NCBI GenBank assembly: GCA_000697335.1
Contig: JNEM01010363.1
Coordinates: 1-37,334, forward strand
DNA from: Conidiobolus incongruus B7586
Lineage: Eukaryota
Direction: 5' to 3'
Length of the DNA: 37,334 bases
The translations under genes and the position numbers were made by a program. Positions 2,400-37,026 of this stretch are shown here, piece by piece. The first letter of the stretch is position 1. Each line of letters starts with the position of its first letter. Under the pieces are notes generated by a model. The model made no database searches. It was not told the DNA's origin and worked only from the letters and a program-made list of their open reading frames with translations.

Positions 2400-3362
2400 C
2401 ATGATTTATAGTAGAATTTAACTTGAAAATTTCAACTTTGATAAATTTAGTAAATATAAACCTTCAAGCCTCTTCTTTTTAAGAGCCAAAGGTAATGTAA
2501 TTGTAAAGATTATAATGAAGGAAGTACGGCTATTGGAGTAAAGATGACCAATTCTTTTGATTGAACAAAGCGGTTATTAGCTTTGCCTTATAACTTCTGA
2601 CACTATTTTGTTAATGGTTGATTTGTTAATTTTTCCTAAGTTGCCCATTTGAAAATATTCCTAAATGAATTAGCATTATAGTGATATAAGCTCATGACTA
2701 CAATTTCAAGCAAAAGTTTATGAAACGCTATTCCATTATAATCCATTCCAATTATCCAAAGAATCTCATTTAAATATACTTGGATTTTGATAGCTTAAAT
2801 CTGGGTTTATTTGATCTTAATCAAAATCTGAATTTATTAAAAGGTTATCAACTGTCAATAACAATCGGTTAAAGAAATAGCAATAATTTGATCTAATAGA
2901 CTAGGATATTATTTATCATTCCTTAAGCTCTGCCTTGTAATAGAGACCCCTTTAGCATTTAGTTTATCAAGTAAAAGATGGTTATCAATTTCTTAACTTT
3001 TTTTGATAAAGCAAGATGAATTTTGAGTATGGTAAAAAAATTGATGAATAATTTAGAGTTTCATATCTAAAGCTCTAAGTGAAAAATTGGGAAACATTTC
3101 AATATATTTTTTGACAATTTTATTTTCCACCCAGGAATTGGTGGTAGTAATTAGAAAGATTAGGCCGAATTTCAACAGTCTATTGCTCTTAAACATACTA
3201 ATCTAGCATTTAACTCTACAATGTGACAGAACCTTATCACTTCAAGCAAATAACAAAGTTAGATGGATTTGATTCACTCAGTGTTTTGCAATAAATTAGA
3301 TTTTAATGAGGTATTTTTGAACTTAGATATCAAATTTTGAATTATTTTGATTTTGGTTCATG
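2400..3362 (-). pseudogene. Possible decayed F-box/LRR-like gene remnant
   Basis: The minus strand gives coding-like peptide fragments broken by many stops and frameshifts (MNQNQNNSKFDI*, LLEVIRFCHIVELNARLVCLR, EMFPNFSLRAL, IAISLTDCY). The family assignment is weak inference. Confidence 0.25.
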
Positions 3363-3747: not shown

Positions 3748-3964
3748 GCTCACTCAAACAAAATTAAATACTATTTAATTAAACATATTGATTTTATTGA
3801 AATTTTTTAATAACATGGTTAATTTTTCAAAGAAATTCAAAATATTATAAGTTTAAAATATTAAATTGTTTTATTAAACATATATTGATATTCAAAACTT
3901 ATATATAGTTGAAATTTAAAATATAAACATACTATTATAATTTGATATAATTGAACTGTGAAAT

Positions 3965-4745
3965 AAATGTATATAACTCGATTTTGTAAAATCAATTTAT
4001 TAGAAATATATCAAGCATTAATAAATTATTCAAGCTAAGTATGCTATCACCGTTCGTGGATATTAATAATAAAATCCTAAATAGAACAGAAAATGTGTTA
4101 ATAAATCGAATAAGAATTAATATAAAATTTTAAATAGAGAGATCATATAAAATGAGCAAATAGAGTATAGAATCCATAAAACACAAGAGCAAATCTTTAT
4201 AATTTGAGTTAACAAATTATTGTTAAAGGCTTCAATACAAAAAATGAACCAGTATTTCAAATCAAATCCATTGAACGCCAATATTTAGAAAAAGAAAAGT
4301 TCTATCAACTCCAAGAAAGAATTAATAGAACATAAATCTTGAAAAGATTCGAATAAAATAAGAAAAATTGTCAAATAAAAACTGAATCAATTTAAATTTG
4401 ACGGTAGTTAGATAATTAATTTTGCATTGGTAGAATTCAATTATCAAAATCATTTCAAATTCACCACGTGAAAATCAAGTATTATAGTTCAAGCTAACAC
4501 AAGAGCGAATCTTTATAAGAACATGAGTCCTTATTGTTGACTTGAAATACTCGATATCACTTATGCAAAACTAAATTCATCTAAAGTGACAAATATGGCA
4601 AAATGATTTTGAATCACTTTGATCATCAAAATGAGTCAAAGCAATAATGCGTAACAAGTATCACGCATGAACGGATTAGGGTTAGTAAATGGTATATAGT
4701 ATACCATCGAACAGGGATGTGATACATAGAAATACTGGCTCTGGT
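3965..4745 (-). ncRNA. Candidate telomerase RNA (TER/TR); 5' end not defined
   Basis: Minus strand: template CUAACCCUAA (4685-4676) lies 3 nt after an 8-bp hairpin (4707-4689). Two P5/P6/P6.1 three-way junctions (4538-4496 and 4224-4180) each contain A-AAGA-UUYGC-UCUU-G. Candidate H box AUAGCA (4047-4042), hairpin and ACA (3970-3968). Many helices pair through G-U only on this strand. No ORF. Confidence 0.8.
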
Positions 4746-5061
4746 AGCTCAGAGTTTAAATCATTTGGGTAAAATATTGATACGAATTCAAAAAATCAAT
4801 ACTTACATTAATGGAATCTATAGAATAAGCATTAAAATACAAAGTTCATATTAAGTGGATATAATATATATTGGTTACCATTAGATGTTTGTGCACCAAA
4901 GCCTAACCGAATCAAATAAAAATTAATCATAGAACAGTTGTTAGAAAATAGTATCTATGATTAAAATTTGAAAAACAAAATCAGGATCTGGTAATATTAT
5001 TGATTTTGAAAAGTTCATGTTGAATTCTATTAATATGTATTAGTGTATTTGTAGTGATTGA

Positions 5062-6325
5062 TCATTGTTCTTTTTCTTCAAGTTTTAGATCTTTCATTAA
5101 TTTGTTCAGAGATTCTGCTTTCAAAGCTTGCTCTGAAGCCTCCTAAGATAAAATTAGAATATTAATATTGGTATTAAAAATTTCAATACCTTTTGCTTGA
5201 TTCGTTCTAATAAATCTTGCTTATAATCACTAGATCAAACCAATTAGCAAGTTATATTATGGAAATAATATTTAAAAACCGTACGTTTCATATTCTTCAG
5301 CAGCTTCATTTACAGCTTTCATGAAATCATCCATTCCGCTTCCTGTAACAGATGAAACTCCAACAACCTAAAAAAGTTAAAGCATGTATATTGTCTTAAA
5401 TTGATATATGAATACCTTCAAATGTTGGTAAAATTCATCCAAAACTAATGACATCGAATACATAAATGTGGACATATAAGTTTGATCTTGTTCGATATCA
5501 GCTTGGAACTTTTGAAAATCTTGCATCCAATCAACAGCGAACTGATGGTCTTGTACGTCGGTTTTATTAAAAACAAGAATAAAAGGTAATCTTGTTTTAT
5601 AAAGAATACTATACAAAGAAATTAGGACCAATCATAGATATTTTAAGAATAATATTACCTGCAAGCGTAAAGCATATTGGACATAAAAGTAGCAGGACTA
5701 GTAGTTCTAGGGGTATCAATAATATAGGCAATAACAGTAGGATAGGAAAGCGCTAAGCTTTCAGTGATAATGGCACCAGAAGCAGACCATGTAAAAATTT
5801 CAATTTGACCAGGAGTATCAATCAAAATATGGCTAAGGGAAATAAATAAATAAATATATATATATATATATTGAGAGATATAGTTCTAACTTACTCAAGC
5901 TTATCTTCTTTCTTTTGAATAATGTCGAGAACTTGTTCGAATTTAGTAGTAAACAAGTTAAGACTGGTTAAGATGGCTCCATTAGGACCTAACCCATATC
6001 TGCAAAAGTGAGTAAATGAGCAAAATAAAAACATATATTATATTTACTCTTTCATAACGACTTTATAATTAACGGTATCTCTGATATCCAAGTTAGGTTT
6101 ATAAGGGACATTATAAACAGCAGGATCCAAGTTAATAATATAGGGATTTTTATTAGTTTTTTGTTTGAAATAAGAATTAATTCTCTAAAAAAATATTTAA
6201 TAAAAGTGTGATAATATTTTATATAGTAATAGTACTTGATTAAAGGTAGTTTTGCCTGACCCTGCCATACCAATAGAAATAATACAGACAGGTTTAGATG
6301 TTGCGTTGGAAGTAGATTCAGACAT
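5062..6325 (-). CDS. GPN1: GPN-loop GTPase 1 (Npa3/XAB1); multi-exon
   Basis: ATG at 6325. Spliced motifs [11 protein letters not shown] (P-loop), [32 protein letters not shown] (GPN loop), [47 protein letters not shown]. Ends [12 protein letters not shown], with TGA at 5064-5062. Confidence 0.95.
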
Positions 6326-6564: not shown

Positions 6565-7509
6565 CATATATTCACATAAATTAAATTAAAGTGGATAAAG
6601 GGAAGTAATGATAATAGTTTATGGAAATCTTCTCGCCATAATTGGCTTCACTCAAAGACCAGAGAGCCAGTCAAGTCATCAATCAAACGAATCTACCACA
6701 GTAATTTTATTTGTTCTTTGTTTAAATTAATCTGACTCTTAATTTATCATATAATTATTGAATAAATTTGACAAAGAATTTATTCTTACAAACTATAATA
6801 TTTTCGACTGGGTTCTTGATTGGATACAAGTGCTTCATCCAAAAAAATATAAAAATATTTTATAACATACAATGATTATAATGTTTTTCATTAACTTTAT
6901 AATCAATAGTATTCAAATCTGAATTAATCATAAAATAAAATTCTTTAGGTATAAATTACTTCATGGTTATTCTATTGTTATATTTTATTTTAGATATTAG
7001 AGTAATGCCTTCAACAAAATATCTGATTTATATACTTTGTCCTTTGTACTATATTTACATTTAATACCTGATTTTTCGTATCAAGTTCATTATTTATATT
7101 TCCAACATTTCAATTGATAAAAAAAATAATATTTTAAATTTTCATTACTATTTATACCAATCAAAGTGTGTTGTCATGATTATAATATATATTATTAGGA
7201 TAATTGAATAAAAATCAATAATTAAAATTGAATCATAAATTATAAACTAATATAATGCATTTGCGATATCAATTTGGTAGTATACGAATGTTAAAAATAT
7301 TTTAAAACATTATCAAATGTTACATTTCTTATGAATAATTAAATTTCAGTTACCTTTATTAATTATTGATATATAATCCCATATATTATTTAATTAAATT
7401 TAATTATTAATACCCTTTGATCATGGTTAGTCAAATATAAAAATCCTTTTCAAATTATATCCAATTATTCACATTCAAATAAATATTACTCAATTTAGCT
7501 CTATAAAAT

Positions 7510-10341
7510 ATGGGCAGAAAATATCCTCAAAGATTTAGCTACACTCCAGCCAATTCTGAATTAAAAGAAATTCCAGATAAGGTTAATTCGTCAACTGGAC
7601 TATTGAATGACGTAGAATCGGAGAACCCTGAAAATAAACTACGCTCACGTCCTATACAAAATTTAATTGGTATGAATAGCTCTAGACCGATGAGAAACTC
7701 CTATCCAGATGTTTATTCACGTGTCAATCCTCCAGCGACAGAAAATGACAAAATTTCCCCTCAGCAGCAGGTATATCATCAATTATGAAATATTAATACT
7801 GTATTCATATGTAACAATAGCTAAGAAGACTGTCATCAATATTACTAGATCAAAAATTATCCAGCAGTGATTTTACAAGTTACCAACTGGGAGTTTCCAA
7901 CAATTCGGATTTAGACAAATATGCAAATGGCATTCGCTCCCCTGAGTTGCTACAATCTATATCACTGATGGCCAGTATGAGGCTAAATCAATTGCAAAAA
8001 GGCGAGAGACCACCAACTCCCCAAGCGCTCCTTCGCCAATTAGTCAGAGCCATTAACTCTGAACGGTTAGCAGACAAAAATGAAATACAAGAAACTGTTC
8101 GAAATACATCACATACTGCTATTTCCCAGAAACTAACAATATCATCTAAAACGATTGATGTCAGCGATAGCAGTAGCGATAGTCCAATCGCCTTTAAGAT
8201 AGACGACTTTGATCCTTCAGCTTATAATCATCAAGTTGACAAGCTAATTGACGAGATCCCTAATATAAGCTTAATAGACCTTGAATCAATAGAAAATCTG
8301 GAAGCATACTCCAATATGAACATCAGTCACCGCTCCTTGAGAGATATCAATATTGAAGTTCCATCCTTACCCGACCACGATCTTAGTGAATCCAATAATA
8401 TTGATCAATATTTTAACAACTCTTTGAACACCGATCAAGATCTAGACAAGCTATTTCTCAAAGATGCGCTTCCCACCCCCGAGCGAAAATTTATTGACAT
8501 TTCCGACCAATTAACAGTCAATTCAAGTTTTGTCAACTCCAGTATTGCACAGGATCGAAGTTCAGTCGCAGAAAATTCCAGATTATCTATTAATGACTTT
8601 CCGGACCCTAATGTTGGCACATTCAGCCTATCTCTAACCGACCACGATGAGCAAATTGTGCAATATAATGATCTAACATCAGTTTCAGTGGGGCTTGATT
8701 TAAAGGAACCTGATGATACTTCCAATATGCCAGTCGTGGACTTGGAGGAAGATAAGAGCAAATCAGTGGATCTCTCGATGCTTGACAAGGCATTTATTCA
8801 GACCCCATTCAACAATCAATCTGGTTTGGACATATCACTTGACTTGAAAAATGAACTGGAGGGATTGCAGCACGAAATTGAATCAAACATTAATGATCTT
8901 GTAGTCCCTGAAGAATTAAGCCCTCCTCCTAACGTTGAAACTAGTCAAACAATCGACCAATTGATTCATACCAAGGAAGATGAAAAATCAGAATCAGCCT
9001 TCTCAGTAGATAATACTCATCAAGATGAAGCTAATCCACTTTTACCCGAATATGAGCCAGAATTGAAAAATCATATTCCCGATCAATCTCTTGATCTTTC
9101 TGAACCAATTGGAGACATCACTTCCGACTCTATTGATCAAAACATTAAATCCGACTTACAACCTCAGTCAGAGCAGGGTCAAGAAATTAAATCTGACGGC
9201 TCAACAGAGCCATCAATCGAACCAGAGCCTGAAATTGATGATGCTGTTCATAATGAGGAAAACGAAAAATCTCCAGTGTCAACAAAGTCAAGCCCCGCTT
9301 CTGAATCAAGTGAATCTTCCGATGAAGAATCTACTATCGATTTACCAGCCCAAAAAATTGATCAAGATCCAGATATTGATCTACCCAGTGTTTCTGAAAC
9401 TTCTGAGACAGCAGCTTTAATACATCCGCAAATTGAAATTGATGCAAGCTCAATAATTGAATCCAATGAACCAACAGACGCGATTGAGGAAACCCCCTTG
9501 ATAGATCAAACAAACAATACTGAAGTAGTCGCTGTATTGGAATCAGATAACCTAATTGAATCAAATAAACTAGATGCACTTTCCAATTCAACTCAAGATG
9601 CAACTTTATTAAGGTATATCTTTTTATCACATTTTCCATTTATTGCTTACATATTCTTAGTGTCAATCCCCCTGTTTCACCCAACGCTTCTTTTACCGAC
9701 AATTTGGGTGAAATACCCAATGAGAATATAGATGCTGTGAGCAAGGAGAGTGATATTTCTGATGGTTTTATTGACATAATCCGTGATAGTTCGACCAAGC
9801 CAATTTTATCTCCCGTTTCACCAGGCTCAGTTCCTACTCTTCCTACATTACACACCTTTAGGAAACAACGCAAGATTGATTTTAATCAAATTTCTAAAAG
9901 TTCTGCATCACTGTGAGTTAGATATTTTGAATTAATATTTACTGAAGCTAACTCAATTTTTAGAAATAACTTGCCTGCTTCGCAAGTAAAATCACTTGTA
10001 CAATCAATGGCAAATACCAGGATATCCCAGGCTACATTAAATAGTTTTTTATATGCTACAGATAAATATTTTGAACAAGTTTCTGGAGATTTGTTATCCT
10101 ATGCTAAACATGCTCAAAGAAAGACGGTCAACGAAGAGGATGTTTTATGTTTATTTAAAAGGTATATACATGTGTTACATGTGTTATAACATTGATAATA
10201 ACCTTGAAACTTAGACAAAATAGGATTAAAAACCCTGAGATGAGTGATTGGATTAGTTTAGCTCAAAAACAACTCCCAAGGGATTTATGGGAGCCTTTAG
10301 CTGAAGCAACTAATCCATCAAAGCGAAGAAAGAAGAACTAA
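7510..10341 (+). CDS. CENPT: CENP-T/Cnp20/Cnn1-like inner kinetochore protein: long acidic disordered region plus C-terminal histone fold
   Basis: Exons at about 7510-7770, 7821-9612, 9661-9912, 9964-10161 and 10215-10341 join in frame. C-terminus LPASQVKSLV...TDKYFEQVSGDLLSYAKHAQRKTVNEEDVLCLFKRQ...LAQKQLPRDLW is a CENP-T histone fold. N-terminal TPQALLRQLVR resembles the conserved CENP-T TP.xLLR helix. Confidence 0.8.
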
Positions 10342-16900: not shown

Positions 16901-18911
16901 TGATACACATTGATATTTAATGCTGATGTAATATTTTTAATCAATAGGATTATTTATGAATTTCAATACTCTGAATTTTTTAATTTTCCTGACATAATTA
17001 AAATATGATTAAATCTTTTTAATATAAAATATATAGAAGTTAAATGCTTAAATATCAAAAGAAAAAGTAAGAGTCTATTATGAGAGGTTATGAAAATCAA
17101 CTCTAATAAAAGTTACTTTCAATTATAAAAACTCTTGAAAATAATAATATTTTTATAAGATTATTTATCAATAGCATTATATATAAATAATTTGGTTTTA
17201 TGAATATTGTTTCAAATATTTATTTGTTAGACTAGATTTATATAGTTATTGATATACTTTAATGCATTGAATATGTCATTATAAATTGTTCCCTAATAAA
17301 TAAAAAATATATAAATTATGGTAATTCGATAATAGAAATTGTATCAATTTTTCCAATTTTATAAATTTTTGACCAACTCTTTCATTAGGTATGATATAAT
17401 ATGTTATATATTGCTACACGATAGGAACCTCCATTCTCATTAAGTATCCTTATATCAACCCAATATAATTGTTATTCTCCCCTCGAATACAGATTCACTT
17501 ACTCTTCATTCGTTGGTTGACTATACAGCCAAGCCACTGAAGTAACTCCCAAATCACTTTACCTGATTTACTTTATAAAAACCCAGAATTTTGATGATTA
17601 ATTTCACCGTTAGCTCGGTCTGACCTTTCACTATTTAACATAATCAATGAAACACTCTTCCAACGCATCTTGTAGTTCAATATCCGGGATCAACCCCTTT
17701 CATAATTCTGGTCAGAGCTCTACTACTTCAAGTAGGATTTATAATTTTTTAATAAATTACAGCATCAATTTAGTATTAATCGATGACAAAAGTATATTTA
17801 GAATTGATTTATCTTTGACATTAATATTTAGAATGTATTGTTATTTTCAAAATGGCTAATAATAAAAATTATTTTTGTCACTTCGATGGTTTTCACTCAT
17901 ATGTATCATAATAATTATTTTCATTGCCAAATCACTGCTTTGATCAATTAATATAAATATTATGAAATATAGTGATTTGAATATTTAGAGATCATTTCAT
18001 TATTAAGAACCAATAAAGCTGTATTTAAAAATTAAAATATAATTGAAAATCACTTTTATTGTGTTTGTCAAAAGTTATTACAATCAAAACTTGATACTTT
18101 GTTTACAAAAGTCATAGTCGCTACATAATCATAATAAGACAGAATCAAATTTATTTGTCCGAATTTTGATTTAATCGAACTAGTATATTAGTGGAAATTT
18201 TTAGACTTGAGAAAATGTATTGGATTAATTAGGCAAATAGAAGCACACTTGAACTCATTATAGATACGTGATAACCGAATGATTTGTATGAATTAAATTG
18301 TTCATTATTTTAAAACATTAATCTTTTAATTCGATTAATACGAAAAATATTGATGATATTACAAGATTGTGTTTCAAAATAGATAATAAAATATGATAGA
18401 TAGTTAATTTTGATATAACCAAATACTGATATTTACTTTGACAATTAAATATTCAACCATATTTATTCTCTTGATCCAAAGCATATGGTTACATCTTTAT
18501 CCACTAGAACTTCCCAACAGCGGAATGTGAAGGTACCTCAGTCTGAAATTTAATTACTTTTGATATCAAAAAATATAATACATAACTATTATTAATACTT
18601 ATACCAATTTAGCAATATTTTATTTGAATAATTTGTTCTGTATAAAATTCATAGTATTAACAGACCTAAATCAGGGTCAATATTATCTCTTTATTACTAT
18701 ATCATCAACTGATCATATGATATAATGATTGGTTCAGGATTAATGTTTGTGAAACTCACCCCAATTGGCTTCCAAATCTGAACTTGTTTGTACATTAAAT
18801 GGGTGCAAATTTTGTCTATAAATACACTGGTGTGGTCCAATTTTGGGTTTGTCAATTCTTTCATTGACCATAGAGAATACACAATAAATTGATAGTTAAC
18901 AATATTAAATA

Positions 18912-21929: not shown

Positions 21930-24163
21930 ATGAATAAACTACATTTAATAGAAACTGAGTATTATAATTTATTACAATCTGATAACTCTGAAAATGATAC
22001 CAAGTTAGAAGAATTAAGGATAGAGTAATAATGCGATACTATTCTATGCTTTTATATTTTAATAATATTATATTAATTTAGATTGAGCGAGATTTACTTT
22101 GATCTTATAGTGGACAATGTAAATTCTAGTCAAATGTATAATTTTGAGGAAAGATGTTGGAAAATTGTGTTTTATTCACATTTAACCAAATTAAGGAGCT
22201 CATCACAAGTATATTATTTGAATTATTTTTTACATTCAATATTAATTGATCGCAATAGGATTCAAATGAGATATCAGAGCAGGACCTCTCGCTTCAATTA
22301 AAAGATTGGTTTTATTTCGGACTAGGCTATTTTAATTCTCTATTCTTATATATTGGTAAATCCAATAATGTGAATATTAATTCCTTTCCTTTTGAGCTAC
22401 TTAAATCCAAAGAATCAAAGCTAATTAACTTAGCTGAATCTTTGCAAAAATGCTTAATCAGTTTAGGGAACCTACATCGATACCAAATCCCTGCAGCAGA
22501 TCCTTCTTCAAATGGCTTCGAATCCGATCCTAATTTTAAACAGGCTGAGCAATGCTATTTAAGATCATCATTTATCAATCCTTTAAATGGGCGTGCGTAT
22601 AGTCAGCTCGGTATTCTAAATGCCAATACTCAATATCCTGTAAAATTTTTATTTTACTATTCTCTTGGACTGATTTGTGAGAATTCATGCATTATATCTG
22701 ACAAGAACCTTAAATTCATCCTCAACAAATATACTAATCATAGCCAACCACCTCAGGATGCGAAATCGAGTATATTGGTGCTTGAATATAAAATGATTGG
22801 GTTCTATGATCTAATAACCTGTCAAAATTCATGGGACCTTATTATTGATCGCGTCAAGAAATTTGGTCCGATATTTGTCGAGGATATGGAAAATCGTGCT
22901 TCTGATATTGATTCATTAATGGAAGAAACGTATTCAGATCCCCACTGGTCTGAAACCATATTCCACATCGTCATCATTCTTCTCTTCAATTGCTGGCGAC
23001 TAGCTCAATTTAAGAAAGATTTGCCCAACAACACACCATCATTTTGTATGGATATCCTATTCAAGATCCAGTATCACTGCTTCAAGCTCTCTATCAGAAC
23101 TATGAATTTGCTGATAGAAGATATTGGATCCAATTCCAGCTCCAAATTAGATTTGGTATCTATCTTTAGTGATTTTTGGATATCTAATAAGGAGCTGTGT
23201 TTCAGATTCTGTGAAGATAACACTGTTAAAGCAGAACTGCTCAACTTTATCATTAAAATTTCCAAGATATATAACTCGCTTTATCACATACATATGGGAA
23301 AATCTCAACTGAGTGTCGATGAACTTAAAGAGTTGCATCGAAGACCTTCTCGCCACGATTTCATTGTATGGGGAGTTCTCCCGTTAGCCAACTGCCACCG
23401 TCAGTTGGATGCCAACTATAGTACATTGACCAACAATGACTCTTTGGCCACAATGATTCTCATTGCCAGATGGTTTCAAATGGTCAATTCAGTGCATCAA
23501 TCGCCTGAATTCACTCTTTCATTTCCAGTTAATGCTCAGCTTCTTACCATAGGACACCAGAACCATGCAAAAGCACGTAATAAAGTGAATGATATGATGG
23601 TTAAGATGGCTGAATTAAGACTTCAGGACCAGGTAGAAAAACTTGAGAAAATGCTGTTGAAGAAGATTCCCATCCAAATCATACCCGATGCTCATGTATT
23701 ATTAACGCATTTCAATTGGGTAGAAGATTGGATTAAAAGGGCTAAAGTTCGAGTGATTATTACGAAATCAACTTTAGACGAGTTGGATGAGCTAAAAAAG
23801 GGGACAGACAATGTGAACTTTCAAGCTAGGAATATTGTTCGAAAATTCGATGCTTGGGGTACTAAGTACAATAAAGACAGAATATTTATTGATGCATCTG
23901 ACTACTCCAACCTCAATTTATTGGACTCTAAACACATTACCAAGGTTGAACAAAATGACCAATTGCTTGAAAGTTTTGAAAAATACCAATATTTATTGAA
24001 TGAACTGGCTAAAGTCACTCAGGATGTCAAGCTGAATGTCACGAGCAAATGGGAGACTTATCTGACTACCGACTCTCCTGCGCTCCTCGAATTAGTCGAC
24101 ATCTTTGGTCTTCAAGGTATTAAGGCAAATAAGGTGATATCAAAATTGAAGCAAAATCATTAA
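21930..24163 (+). CDS. EST1/SMG5-7 family protein with 14-3-3-like TPR domain and C-terminal PIN domain (SMG6-like)
   Basis: ATG at 21930; introns at about 22025-22081 and 22209-22258. Motifs FEERCWKIVFY, CLISLGNLHRY and AEQCYLRSSFINPLNGRAYSQLGIL (EST1/SMG TPR). PIN motifs IIPDAHVLL, TLDELDELKKG, QARNIVR, QNDQLL and LTTDS. Confidence 0.85.
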
Positions 24164-35395: not shown

Positions 35396-37026
35396 TTTCT
35401 TGAATATACCATTTATATATTATTTTCATTATTCATTTTAATATTATTTGTAATGTTTTTGAGTAGTAATGGGTATAAGTGTTTTAATATTGGTTTGTAT
35501 TTTTGATACAGTTTATAACCAAACAAAATATATATTAACTACATGTTATAAACATAAGTCGTAATTTTATAAAATTTCTTCAATTAGCCTCACTTTAAAA
35601 ATACATATTTGTAGTTTATATTAATAATATAATGCTGACTATAAAATGAAAATTATTGTTTGTTTTTATATAATCTTTTTGCGATTATTCAAATCTCTAA
35701 AGCAAACTCTAATACAATATTAAAATAAATATAATTATCTAGTATTAATATCCTTAAAAGTTTGAAATAATTATGTGGTGAATATGTAATACCTAATTAA
35801 AAGTAGCAACAGAAATTATAATCAAACGTGATTCATTTATATAATTTAGTCAATTATCAAATGAAAAAATTCGATTCAAACTAAATTCAGAAAATATTAA
35901 ATTTATTTTAAAGTCACACATATTTACATAAATACTAATGAACCATACTAACTCAAAATTACTTAAATCAATTGCATCAATCAAGATAAATATTATATAT
36001 TAAAACTATGTTACTAGTGTTTAGCTTTAATCATGTATTAATTAATTAGATAGAATATATGAATTTTTACTTAGCACTAATGTCTACATTAAAGCAGTGC
36101 AAAATAAATAGATTGTTGTTTACATATTTAAGTTAGTAACACTCATCTCTATAGTCACTTCATTTTAACAGAGCTATCATTAACTTGATGGATTGATAAT
36201 ATGTTTAATGAAAATTTAAAATATTGTTGATATCATATTCAAAACAATACATTAACTACATGGTATATTTGGAAATTGATAGATGAATTCCTATAGCCTA
36301 ACTTGTATTGTGCCATAGTTCTTAAAATAAATTTATAGTAAAGATCCTCCTATTTACTAGCTCCGATTGATGATTTAGACACTTACATTGATAACAAAAT
36401 CAAATAAAAGATTTGTTTAATTTTATATGTATAATAGCCAAATTTGAAATATTGTTTATATCAATCTCTTATACTTTGATATACAAAAATATATTAGCTT
36501 TTTATTAAATATCTTTAAAAAAATACGAATTGACAAATTATAATATCATTCCACAATATAATTTTGTAAATATTCAGTTTTTCAATAAGATAAATATTAT
36601 TACCATTTTTATAAGAAAATTTTGCCAAATGACATAACTAGAAAATATGAGACTTTCTAATGATTAGCAATATGGTTGATTATATTGTTATAATGATAGT
36701 TGATTAGTTTTTCAAAATTGAATCCTAAAGTATTTCAAACTGTTGTCGCGTGATTTGATGGAAAAACGAAAAGGGAATTATTTGGAATTTTGGATTTTCA
36801 TTAGTATATTGAAAGGCAAAATTATGAAATTCAGTAAATTGACGTAATTTTCAAAATAAAAGAACTTGATTGGAAAGAAATCAGGAATAATTTTCCCATA
36901 GTAACTAGATTTTCAAAATTAATAAGTGAATAAAATCTGAATAATATATTGATTTCAATATATAAAAGGAACTCAAGACAAATCTGATTTTTTATTAAAT
37001 TTAATTAAATTACTATTAATATCAAA

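Follow-up and report, generated by a model that had tools for sequence, protein, structure and literature searches.

A very probable telomerase RNA with two CR4/5-type junctions in a Conidiobolus fungus, and the candidate signals for its 3' end

How does the telomerase RNA of a Conidiobolus fungus acquire its 3' end? The fungal telomerase RNAs (TERs) described in the accessible accounts use Sm sites or spliceosomal cleavage, while animal TERs use H/ACA domains (PMC3603654, PMC11892584, PMC9564094). In the accessible parts of the published accounts, Sm sites and/or spliceosomal cleavage were found for all Dikarya TERs that were compared (PMC4299874, PMC3603654, PMC11892584, PMC9564094), and the origin of the animal H/ACA versus the Dikarya Sm/spliceosomal maturation is stated there as open (PMC8480181). 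A validated telomerase RNA from the Zoopagomycota or other early-diverging fungi was not found in the accessible literature, with most subscription papers lying outside of the search, and the nearest case is an unconfirmed ciliate-like telomerase RNA candidate in Lichtheimia (PMC4133162). The first-pass annotation of the stretch of DNA analyzed here (the window, 37,334 nt, or 74,668 nt when both strands are counted) had proposed an animal-like H/ACA 3' domain on a fungal telomerase RNA candidate. All letters and coordinates that it had given are correct, i.e., AUAGCA, both stems, ACA, and the Sm-like AUUUUUUG at 4245-4238.

The locus and the core of the candidate RNA

The candidate RNA is located in the gap between the GPN1 gene (minus strand) and a mitochondrial carrier gene (plus strand, end at 2012). 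The GPN1 stop at 5064-5062 is about 320 nt upstream of the enclosing helix of the RNA.

5062..6325, minus strand: GPN1/Npa3 GTPase gene, the same-strand upstream neighbor, with seven introns of 47-62 nt

The window comes from a Conidiobolus species closely related to C. coronatus. In comparison with the latter, one GPN1 exon is identical across 66 residues and 275 of 300 residues are in exact blocks, with a different N-terminus. The AMP deaminase encoded in the window has 94% identity to a cluster with the C. coronatus protein and 74% identity to Neoconidiobolus thromboides. A metagenome scan with the C. coronatus GPN1 yielded 99 pattern matches, which led to two distant loci (62 and 55% identity), and the template 9-mer and the junction pattern described below are absent from both of them. 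The 23-nt junction motif had no match in viral contigs and none in prokaryote contigs. Between the GPN1 stop and the core no AAUAAA is present, and therefore release of the RNA from the GPN1 3' UTR is possible; a TATA-like box is found at 4870. From the sequence, an own promoter as well as an Ustilago-type release from the 3' UTR would be compatible with the locus. The predicted length of the RNA is about 600-800 nt.

Several observations were made around the locus. A perfect 11-bp hairpin (4923-4964, minus strand, p 0.98), 100 nt past the GPN1 stop, is possibly a 3' UTR or processing element. A weak Rfam match to a C/D snoRNA at 4638-4555 (E 3.3) was rejected, as it has no D box. The stretch 2400-3350 stands out by a raised G+C content (25-34%) and contains neither a long ORF nor a Pfam match nor a folding signal; it may be a small gene with introns or the remains of a decayed element. 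A long acidic low-complexity gene at 7507-10189 (plus strand) with a C-terminal CENP-T histone fold is likely CENP-T and is divergently oriented to GPN1. An ORF at 22259-24163 (plus strand) with EST1, EST1_DNA_bind and PIN domains represents an Est1/SMG5-7 family gene, and its presence 18 kb from the RNA is probably a coincidence.

The core of the RNA contains the following elements:

4715..4741, minus strand: 5' strands of the predicted enclosing helix, 13 bp (4741-4729/4258-4246, p 0.98) and 4+4 bp (4723-4715/4269-4261)
4246..4269, minus strand: 3' strands of the predicted enclosing helix
4688..4708, minus strand: predicted template boundary element of the P1.1 type, a 9-bp hairpin (p 0.95; z -4.4, 0 of 200 shuffles)
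4676..4685, minus strand: predicted template CUAACCCUAA for TTAGGG repeats (unpaired p 0.85)
4583..4620, minus strand: candidate pseudoknot, stem 1 4620-4613/4590-4583, stem 2 4600-4591/4286-4276

The folding of the core (4745-4240, 506 nt, minus strand) has a z-score of -10.1, and none of 100 shuffles was as good. For 4800-3960 the z-score is -9.6 on the minus strand versus -3.7 on the plus strand, and 12 other 500-nt stretches of the window had values from -2.5 to +3.1 (eight shuffles each). CUAACCCUAA is the sole exact 1.5-repeat site in the window, and the mean number of exact template 10-mers expected per shuffled window is 0.033 (60 shuffles). The boundary hairpin 4708-4688 stops 2 nt short of the template, and the boundary element in its ancestral form is a helix next to the template (PMC8480181). 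The template call presumes TTAGGG telomeres for Conidiobolus; a published report of its telomere repeat was not found, and TTAGGG is described as the ancestral repeat (PMC7857110).

Neither of two pseudoknot candidates is present in the minimum-energy fold. The candidate at 4620-4583 stops 6 nt short of the enclosing helix; its junction contains three U-A pairs, and about two triples could form with its loop. An equally good candidate was found in 19 of 400 shuffles, and an equally good stem 1 in 8 of 3000 when stem 2 was given; the opening cost is 13.5 kcal/mol versus a gain of 6.9-10.2 kcal/mol. Another candidate (4591-4555/4427-4416), which had the top search score (0 of 40 shuffles) and competes with a 20-bp nested arm, was demoted because the opening of its strands costs 14.3 kcal/mol for a gain of 7.0 kcal/mol. 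Separately, 14 bp of complementarity between 4599-4612 and 4444-4457 (minus strand, -12.7 kcal/mol) might form a long-range pseudoknot with an A-run on its 5' side; the 3' strand is mostly in a hairpin loop.

Could the locus be something else? The 10-mer might be a Tbf1-type telomere-like DNA box, or might occur by chance in another structured RNA or in a long GPN1 3' UTR, in which case the H and ACA boxes would be chance occurrences, too. This would agree with the uncertain pseudoknot, with the absence of a match to any Rfam telomerase family at E up to 5 or 10, and with the 2.25 template matches that are expected per window when one mismatch is allowed. However, the 10-mer is exact and unpaired inside a fold with a z-score of -10, it is 2 nt from a hairpin with a z-score of -4.4 and 630 nt from the H box, and two P6.1 junctions with NUNGN loops are on the same strand as the template. 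In addition, eight short ORFs within 3861-4954 gave no Pfam family above the threshold and one sub-threshold match. We regard it as distinctly unlikely that the locus does not encode a telomerase RNA, and very probable that it is the minus-strand telomerase RNA gene of a Conidiobolus fungus. The premise that this is a fungal telomerase RNA has thus received stronger backing than the first-pass annotation had claimed for it, from the template, the boundary hairpin, the enclosing helix, the two P6.1 junctions, and the z-score of -10.

A duplicated CR4/5-type junction

The paired junctions at 4180-4224 and 4496-4538 (minus strand) had been absent from the first-pass annotation. They belong to two larger elements:

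4475..4554, minus strand: CR4/5-type three-way junction, copy 1, inside the core, with P5, P6 (4534-4515) and P6.1 (4513-4501); z -4.2
4165..4238, minus strand: CR4/5-type three-way junction, copy 2, with P6 (4220-4199) and P6.1 (4197-4185); z -1.9

Both are built around a 23-nt direct repeat, each copy of which contains a 4-bp stem with a NUNGN loop (4513-4501, 4197-4185), and this is the definition of P6.1 (PMC3592445). Copy 2 is at the canonical position, 3' of the enclosing helix, and it is also 3' of the Sm-like site. When folded alone, the minimum-energy fold of both copies is the P5/P6/P6.1 arrangement, and copy 1 is more stable (-22.2 versus -12.3 kcal/mol). In long folds the P6.1 of copy 2 is weaker (p 0.03-0.57). 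A single A separates P6 and P6.1, and a G follows P6.1, as in the vertebrate junction.

The two copies have 30 of 31 junction bases in common. Four distal P6 pairs are changed on both sides between them with the pairing kept, and the flanks align loosely (4596-4432 versus 4284-4113, score 81; best of 200 shuffles 66). The junction pattern with a P6 of at least 8 bp has six matches in the window, two of them here, with a shuffle mean of 2.2. Therefore, one junction match is weak evidence, but two homologous ones beside a template are not. Both copies have presumably been kept by selection. It is likely that CR4/5 has been duplicated within one telomerase RNA, and no such case was found in the accessible parts of the published accounts compared. 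Two preserved CR4/5 domains would bear on the question which activating domain is chosen by TERT. The region 4112-3949 was also considered as a further, degenerate copy of the 5' core, and this was rejected (score 59, shuffles up to 71).

Candidate signals for the 3' end

Two sites resemble the signals that are used at the 3' ends of fungal TERs:

4233..4245, minus strand: Sm-like AUUUUUUG (4245-4238) with a one-base overlap with GUAUUG (4238-4233)
3927..3932, minus strand: GUAUGU, a hexamer resembling a 5' splice site, 33 nt beyond the proposed end at 3965

AUUUUUUG directly follows the enclosing helix, and its last bases can also serve as a P5 strand of copy 2. It reads AU6G followed by a U, where the consensus AU5-6GR has a purine, and in long folds it frequently has a low probability of being unpaired. 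Of the six occurrences of AU5-6GUA in 74,668 nt, one is the site discussed here. Hexamers of the GUAUGU type occur 15 times in 74,668 nt; the one at 3932 is just after a U-rich tract, and the only element before it is a non-canonical U-tract. A canonical Sm site is absent 3' of copy 2.

In S. pombe, the Sm site and the 5' splice site have one base in common, and the cut RNA is released through a long distance between branch point and 3' splice site; in two fission yeasts the splice site is 14 and 27 nt past the mature end (PMC4299874). An S. pombe-type 3' end would mean that the spliceosome cuts at GUAUUG (after 4239), that the U-tail is bound by Lsm2-8, and that the mature RNA uses copy 1, with copy 2 and the boxes in the discarded part of the precursor. 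The AU6G/GUAUUG overlap right after the enclosing helix would be in agreement with this, and intron 7 of GPN1, its last one, also uses GUAUUG as its 5' splice site. With a branch-like UUAAC at 4212 and no YAG before 4079, the site matches the long-distance rule (PMC4299874). The very strong folding signal stops at about 4240 (z -1.4 for 4240-3960), and copy 1 is the more stable junction. However, the near-identity of the copy 2 junction bases, the re-paired tip of its P6 and its poorly aligned flanks would be unexpected in a discarded segment, and the base composition is gene-like to about 4030. Taken together, an S. pombe-type end after 4239 is quite unlikely. The RNA probably extends past 4238, because copy 2 lies 3' of the Sm-like site. 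The composition turns very A+T-rich after about 4031 (best estimate; range 4047-3951, which includes 3965 and excludes 4238), and this break and the second junction fit an RNA that extends towards the boxes.

An additional pairing was observed between 4892-4904 and 4227-4239 (minus strand; 13 bp, -15.2 kcal/mol, four G-U). If the transcript starts upstream of 4904, this pairing would mask GUAUUG together with the end of the Sm-like site. It might be a switch in the precursor or due to chance.

The boxes and stems of the H/ACA 3' domain proposed in the first-pass annotation are present:

4042..4047, minus strand: H box AUAGCA (fits ANANNA), one of 50 ANANNA in 5100-3700
3968..3970, minus strand: ACA, one of 19 in 5100-3700, leading into the U-rich tract 3967-3960
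3974..4037, minus strand: proposed 3' hairpin, lower stem 4037-4030/3981-3974, upper stem 4027-4019/4002-3994
4050..4089, minus strand: robust 5' hairpin of 6 bp, a 6x2 internal loop and 4+3 bp (z -2.2; p 0.77-0.99 in 11 of 12 contexts)

Folded alone, 4047-3965 has the proposed 3' hairpin as its minimum-energy fold (-7.7 kcal/mol), with a lower stem of 8 bp (two G-U), a one-sided loop of 11-12 nt, an upper stem of 9-10 A-U bp, and a terminal loop of 16 nt. This is no better than chance, as 90 of 200 shuffles are at least as stable (z 0.06), and the pair probabilities are about 0.55 for the lower and 0.37 for the upper stem. The lower stem drops to p 0.04 when 35 nt are added on the 3' side, has p 0.53-0.66 when the fold starts at 4092, and has p 0.00-0.16 in all ten contexts that start at 4125 or farther upstream. 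In long contexts, the 5' arm is paired with 4113-4102 instead, and the 3' arm becomes part of a local hairpin at 3995-3978. Protein binding could alter the stability of the hairpin beyond the fold prediction. The H box is unpaired with p 0.59-0.81 in 14 of 14 contexts and forms the hinge between two hairpins, the 5' hairpin 4089-4050 stopping 2 nt before it. The 128-nt unit 4092-3965 alone folds into hairpin-hinge-hairpin-tail with both boxes unpaired (unit z -0.28).

How unusual is this layout? In 74,668 nt (both strands) 40 H-arm-ACA elements are at least as stable as the proposed one, which is included in this number, and eight two-hairpin units in the window, including 4092-3965, are at least as stable as this unit. 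A pattern fitted to the proposed stems has five matches in the window and was found in 3 of 300 local shuffles. Shuffles of 4164-3865 contained a two-hairpin unit in 3 of 1989 cases. With the 5' hairpin fixed, shuffles of 4049-3930 had an H box within 6 nt, an arm and an ACA in 483 of 33,365 cases at any energy and in 189 of 33,365 at the observed energy, so that the overall range is 0.6-1.4%. These thresholds are post hoc, set at the values of the first-pass annotation itself, and three to four hairpin ends could have been tried. Because of the post hoc thresholds and the several possible hairpin ends, we infer that the true chance of a hairpin-H-arm-ACA layout is 2-5%. Therefore, the arrangement of the boxes is a little out of the ordinary, but the 3' hairpin taken by itself does not exceed chance. 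Hairpin-H-hairpin-ACA units that are more stable than the proposed one are present at 17399-17545 and 36425-36570 (minus strand; z -0.4 and -0.8) as examples of chance layouts. Other pairings of H (4148, 4123) and ACA (4098, 4096, 3987) did not form a compact hairpin.

The geometry was compared with that of known H/ACA RNAs. Human H/ACA RNAs have 24-28 nt from the terminal loop to the box, and the accumulation of hTR is inhibited by an altered length of the 3' hairpin (PMC5207380); here, the distances are outside of that range, 32 nt for the 3' hairpin and 18 nt for the 5' hairpin. Guide RNAs have pockets of 9-13 nt on both strands at a distance of 14-16 nt to the box (PMC1865073), while the candidate has a 6x2 loop 10 nt from H and a 1-2 x 11-12 loop 22-23 nt from ACA. 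The 16-nt terminal loop has no BIO motif, as it is without the U-G wobble and the terminal U, and it has no CAB box, as it contains UGAU, whereas the CAB consensus used here ends in AG. To our knowledge, CAB and BIO in the 3' terminal loop are not universal outside of mammals. The geometry rules were derived from human RNAs and those of the yeast type, and a fungus with A+T-rich DNA may follow them less strictly.

An H/ACA end would imply that the RNA ends at 3965, 3 nt after ACA, and that two sets of Cbf5-Nop10-Nhp2-Gar1 assemble on 4089-4050 plus H and on 4037-3974 plus ACA. In the animal layout CR4/5 is inside the 5' hairpin of the H/ACA domain; here, it would be followed by a self-standing two-hairpin module appended on its 3' side. 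The fold of 4092-3965 alone, the local chance of 0.15-1.4%, the copy 2 that implies an RNA past the Sm-like site, and the composition break that spans 3965 would all be compatible with such an end. Furthermore, all metazoan TRs studied, including those of sponges, carry H/ACA domains (PMC8480181), and short 5' hairpins are known from AluACA RNAs (PMC5207380). On the other hand, the unit and the 3' hairpin have z-scores near zero, the latter is displaced in longer contexts, the distances from loop and upper stem to the box deviate (18 and 32 nt instead of 24-28 nt, 10 and 22-23 nt instead of 14-16 nt), the pockets are one-sided, CAB and BIO are lacking, seven other two-hairpin units in the window are at least as stable, and the thresholds had been fitted to the element with several hairpin ends to choose from. 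What stands of the proposed H/ACA domain are its boxes and stems; its hairpin is not better than chance, is lost in context, and has the wrong geometry. The animal-style processing signal is more likely a coincidence than a function, and a functional H/ACA end is rather unlikely.

Instead of being the end of the telomerase RNA, 4092-3965 might be a separate H/ACA guide snoRNA, encoded after the telomerase RNA or cut from a shared transcript. The size of 128 nt and the two hairpins fit a snoRNA, but both hairpins lack a two-sided pocket at 14-16 nt from the respective box, and no Rfam snoRNA family was found on the minus strand here at E up to 10, which makes this reading barely plausible.

The best explanation, although we place it somewhat short of an even chance, is a telomerase RNA that runs past copy 2 and has an Sm/Lsm-type or another non-H/ACA end, with coincidental H and ACA boxes. 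In this model TERT would contact the template-pseudoknot core together with one P6/P6.1 junction or both, and its copying of the template would stop at the boundary hairpin. Given the apparent preservation of both junction copies, the mature RNA would continue beyond the Sm-like site, and its end would fall somewhere in the interval from about 4160 to 3950. A ring of Sm proteins might load onto a single-stranded AU6G linker between the core and copy 2. Stem-loops can also follow the Sm site in snRNAs. Alternatively or in addition, spliceosomal cleavage at GUAUGU (3932) might be followed by trimming to the U-rich tract at about 3967-3960, yielding an Lsm-bound end. The proposed 3' hairpin might partly be a by-product of the internal duplication, because its 5' arm (4038-4009) can be aligned to the 3' strand of P5 in copy 1 (4497-4474) with ten exact bases followed by 10 of 11. 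As this double match arose in 1 of 500 shuffles, the arm may be a duplication relic. Against an Sm/Lsm-type end, the box layout is found in only 0.6-1.4% of the conditional shuffles, the composition break includes 3965, and an Sm site far from the 3' end is without precedent in the accessible accounts of the published TERs compared.

The locus thus likely encodes a telomerase RNA in which CR4/5 is duplicated, from a fungal phylum that had not been sampled, and for its 3' end the H/ACA tail is a still viable minority hypothesis. A reading in which a Zoopagomycota TER, about 800 nt long and with both CR4/5 domains functional, is matured via H/ACA, possibly with an internal Sm site in addition, appears doubtful. 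If the H/ACA reading were true, H/ACA biogenesis would predate the animal-fungal split or would have arisen twice, and the Sm/splicing route of the Dikarya would be derived. As both maturation routes leave candidate signals in one RNA, the locus could bear on the ancestral state.

Comparison with known telomerase and H/ACA RNAs

The following comparisons apply to the systems as they are described in the accessible parts of the cited accounts. With box H/ACA guide snoRNAs the 3' region shares the order hairpin, hinge (ANANNA), hairpin, ACA, and a size of about 128 nt (PMC1865073), but it lacks two-sided 9-13-nt pockets, has the wrong pocket-to-box distances, and has no Rfam match. The metazoan H/ACA TRs (vertebrate, cnidarian, sponge) have the same order of template core, CR4/5, H, hairpin, and ACA (PMC8480181, PMC5207380), and a P1.1-type boundary hairpin is also found in basal metazoan TRs. 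Unlike in these RNAs, the H box of the Conidiobolus candidate follows a separate small hairpin and is 115 nt past CR4/5, and the 3' hairpin is weak, too long in comparison with 24-28 nt, and devoid of CAB and BIO.

The Ustilago maydis UmTER is likewise located just 3' of a same-strand protein gene, and a release from the 3' UTR of an mRNA, as in Ustilago, is possible for the candidate (PMC9564094). The putative Sm site of UmTER is 9 nt from its 3' end and it has one CR4/5, in contrast to the candidate, which additionally has a TATA-like box upstream.

The TERs of Pezizomycotina and Taphrinomycotina (N. crassa, Aspergillus, S. pombe TER1) are longer (900-2400 nt versus a prediction of about 600-800 nt) and have the Sm site at their end, whereas the Sm-like site of the Conidiobolus RNA is 5' of a CR4/5 copy. 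The latter also differs in having two CR4/5-type junctions, one of them in the core, and a pseudoknot that is only a candidate. The similarities comprise the TTAGGG-type template, the template-adjacent boundary helix and the core-enclosing helix (PMC3592445, PMC3603654, PMC4299874), as well as the compact P5/P6/P6.1 junction with its 4-bp stem and NUNGN loop. And, as in S. pombe TER1, the Sm-like site overlaps with a 5'-splice-site-like hexamer by exactly one base.
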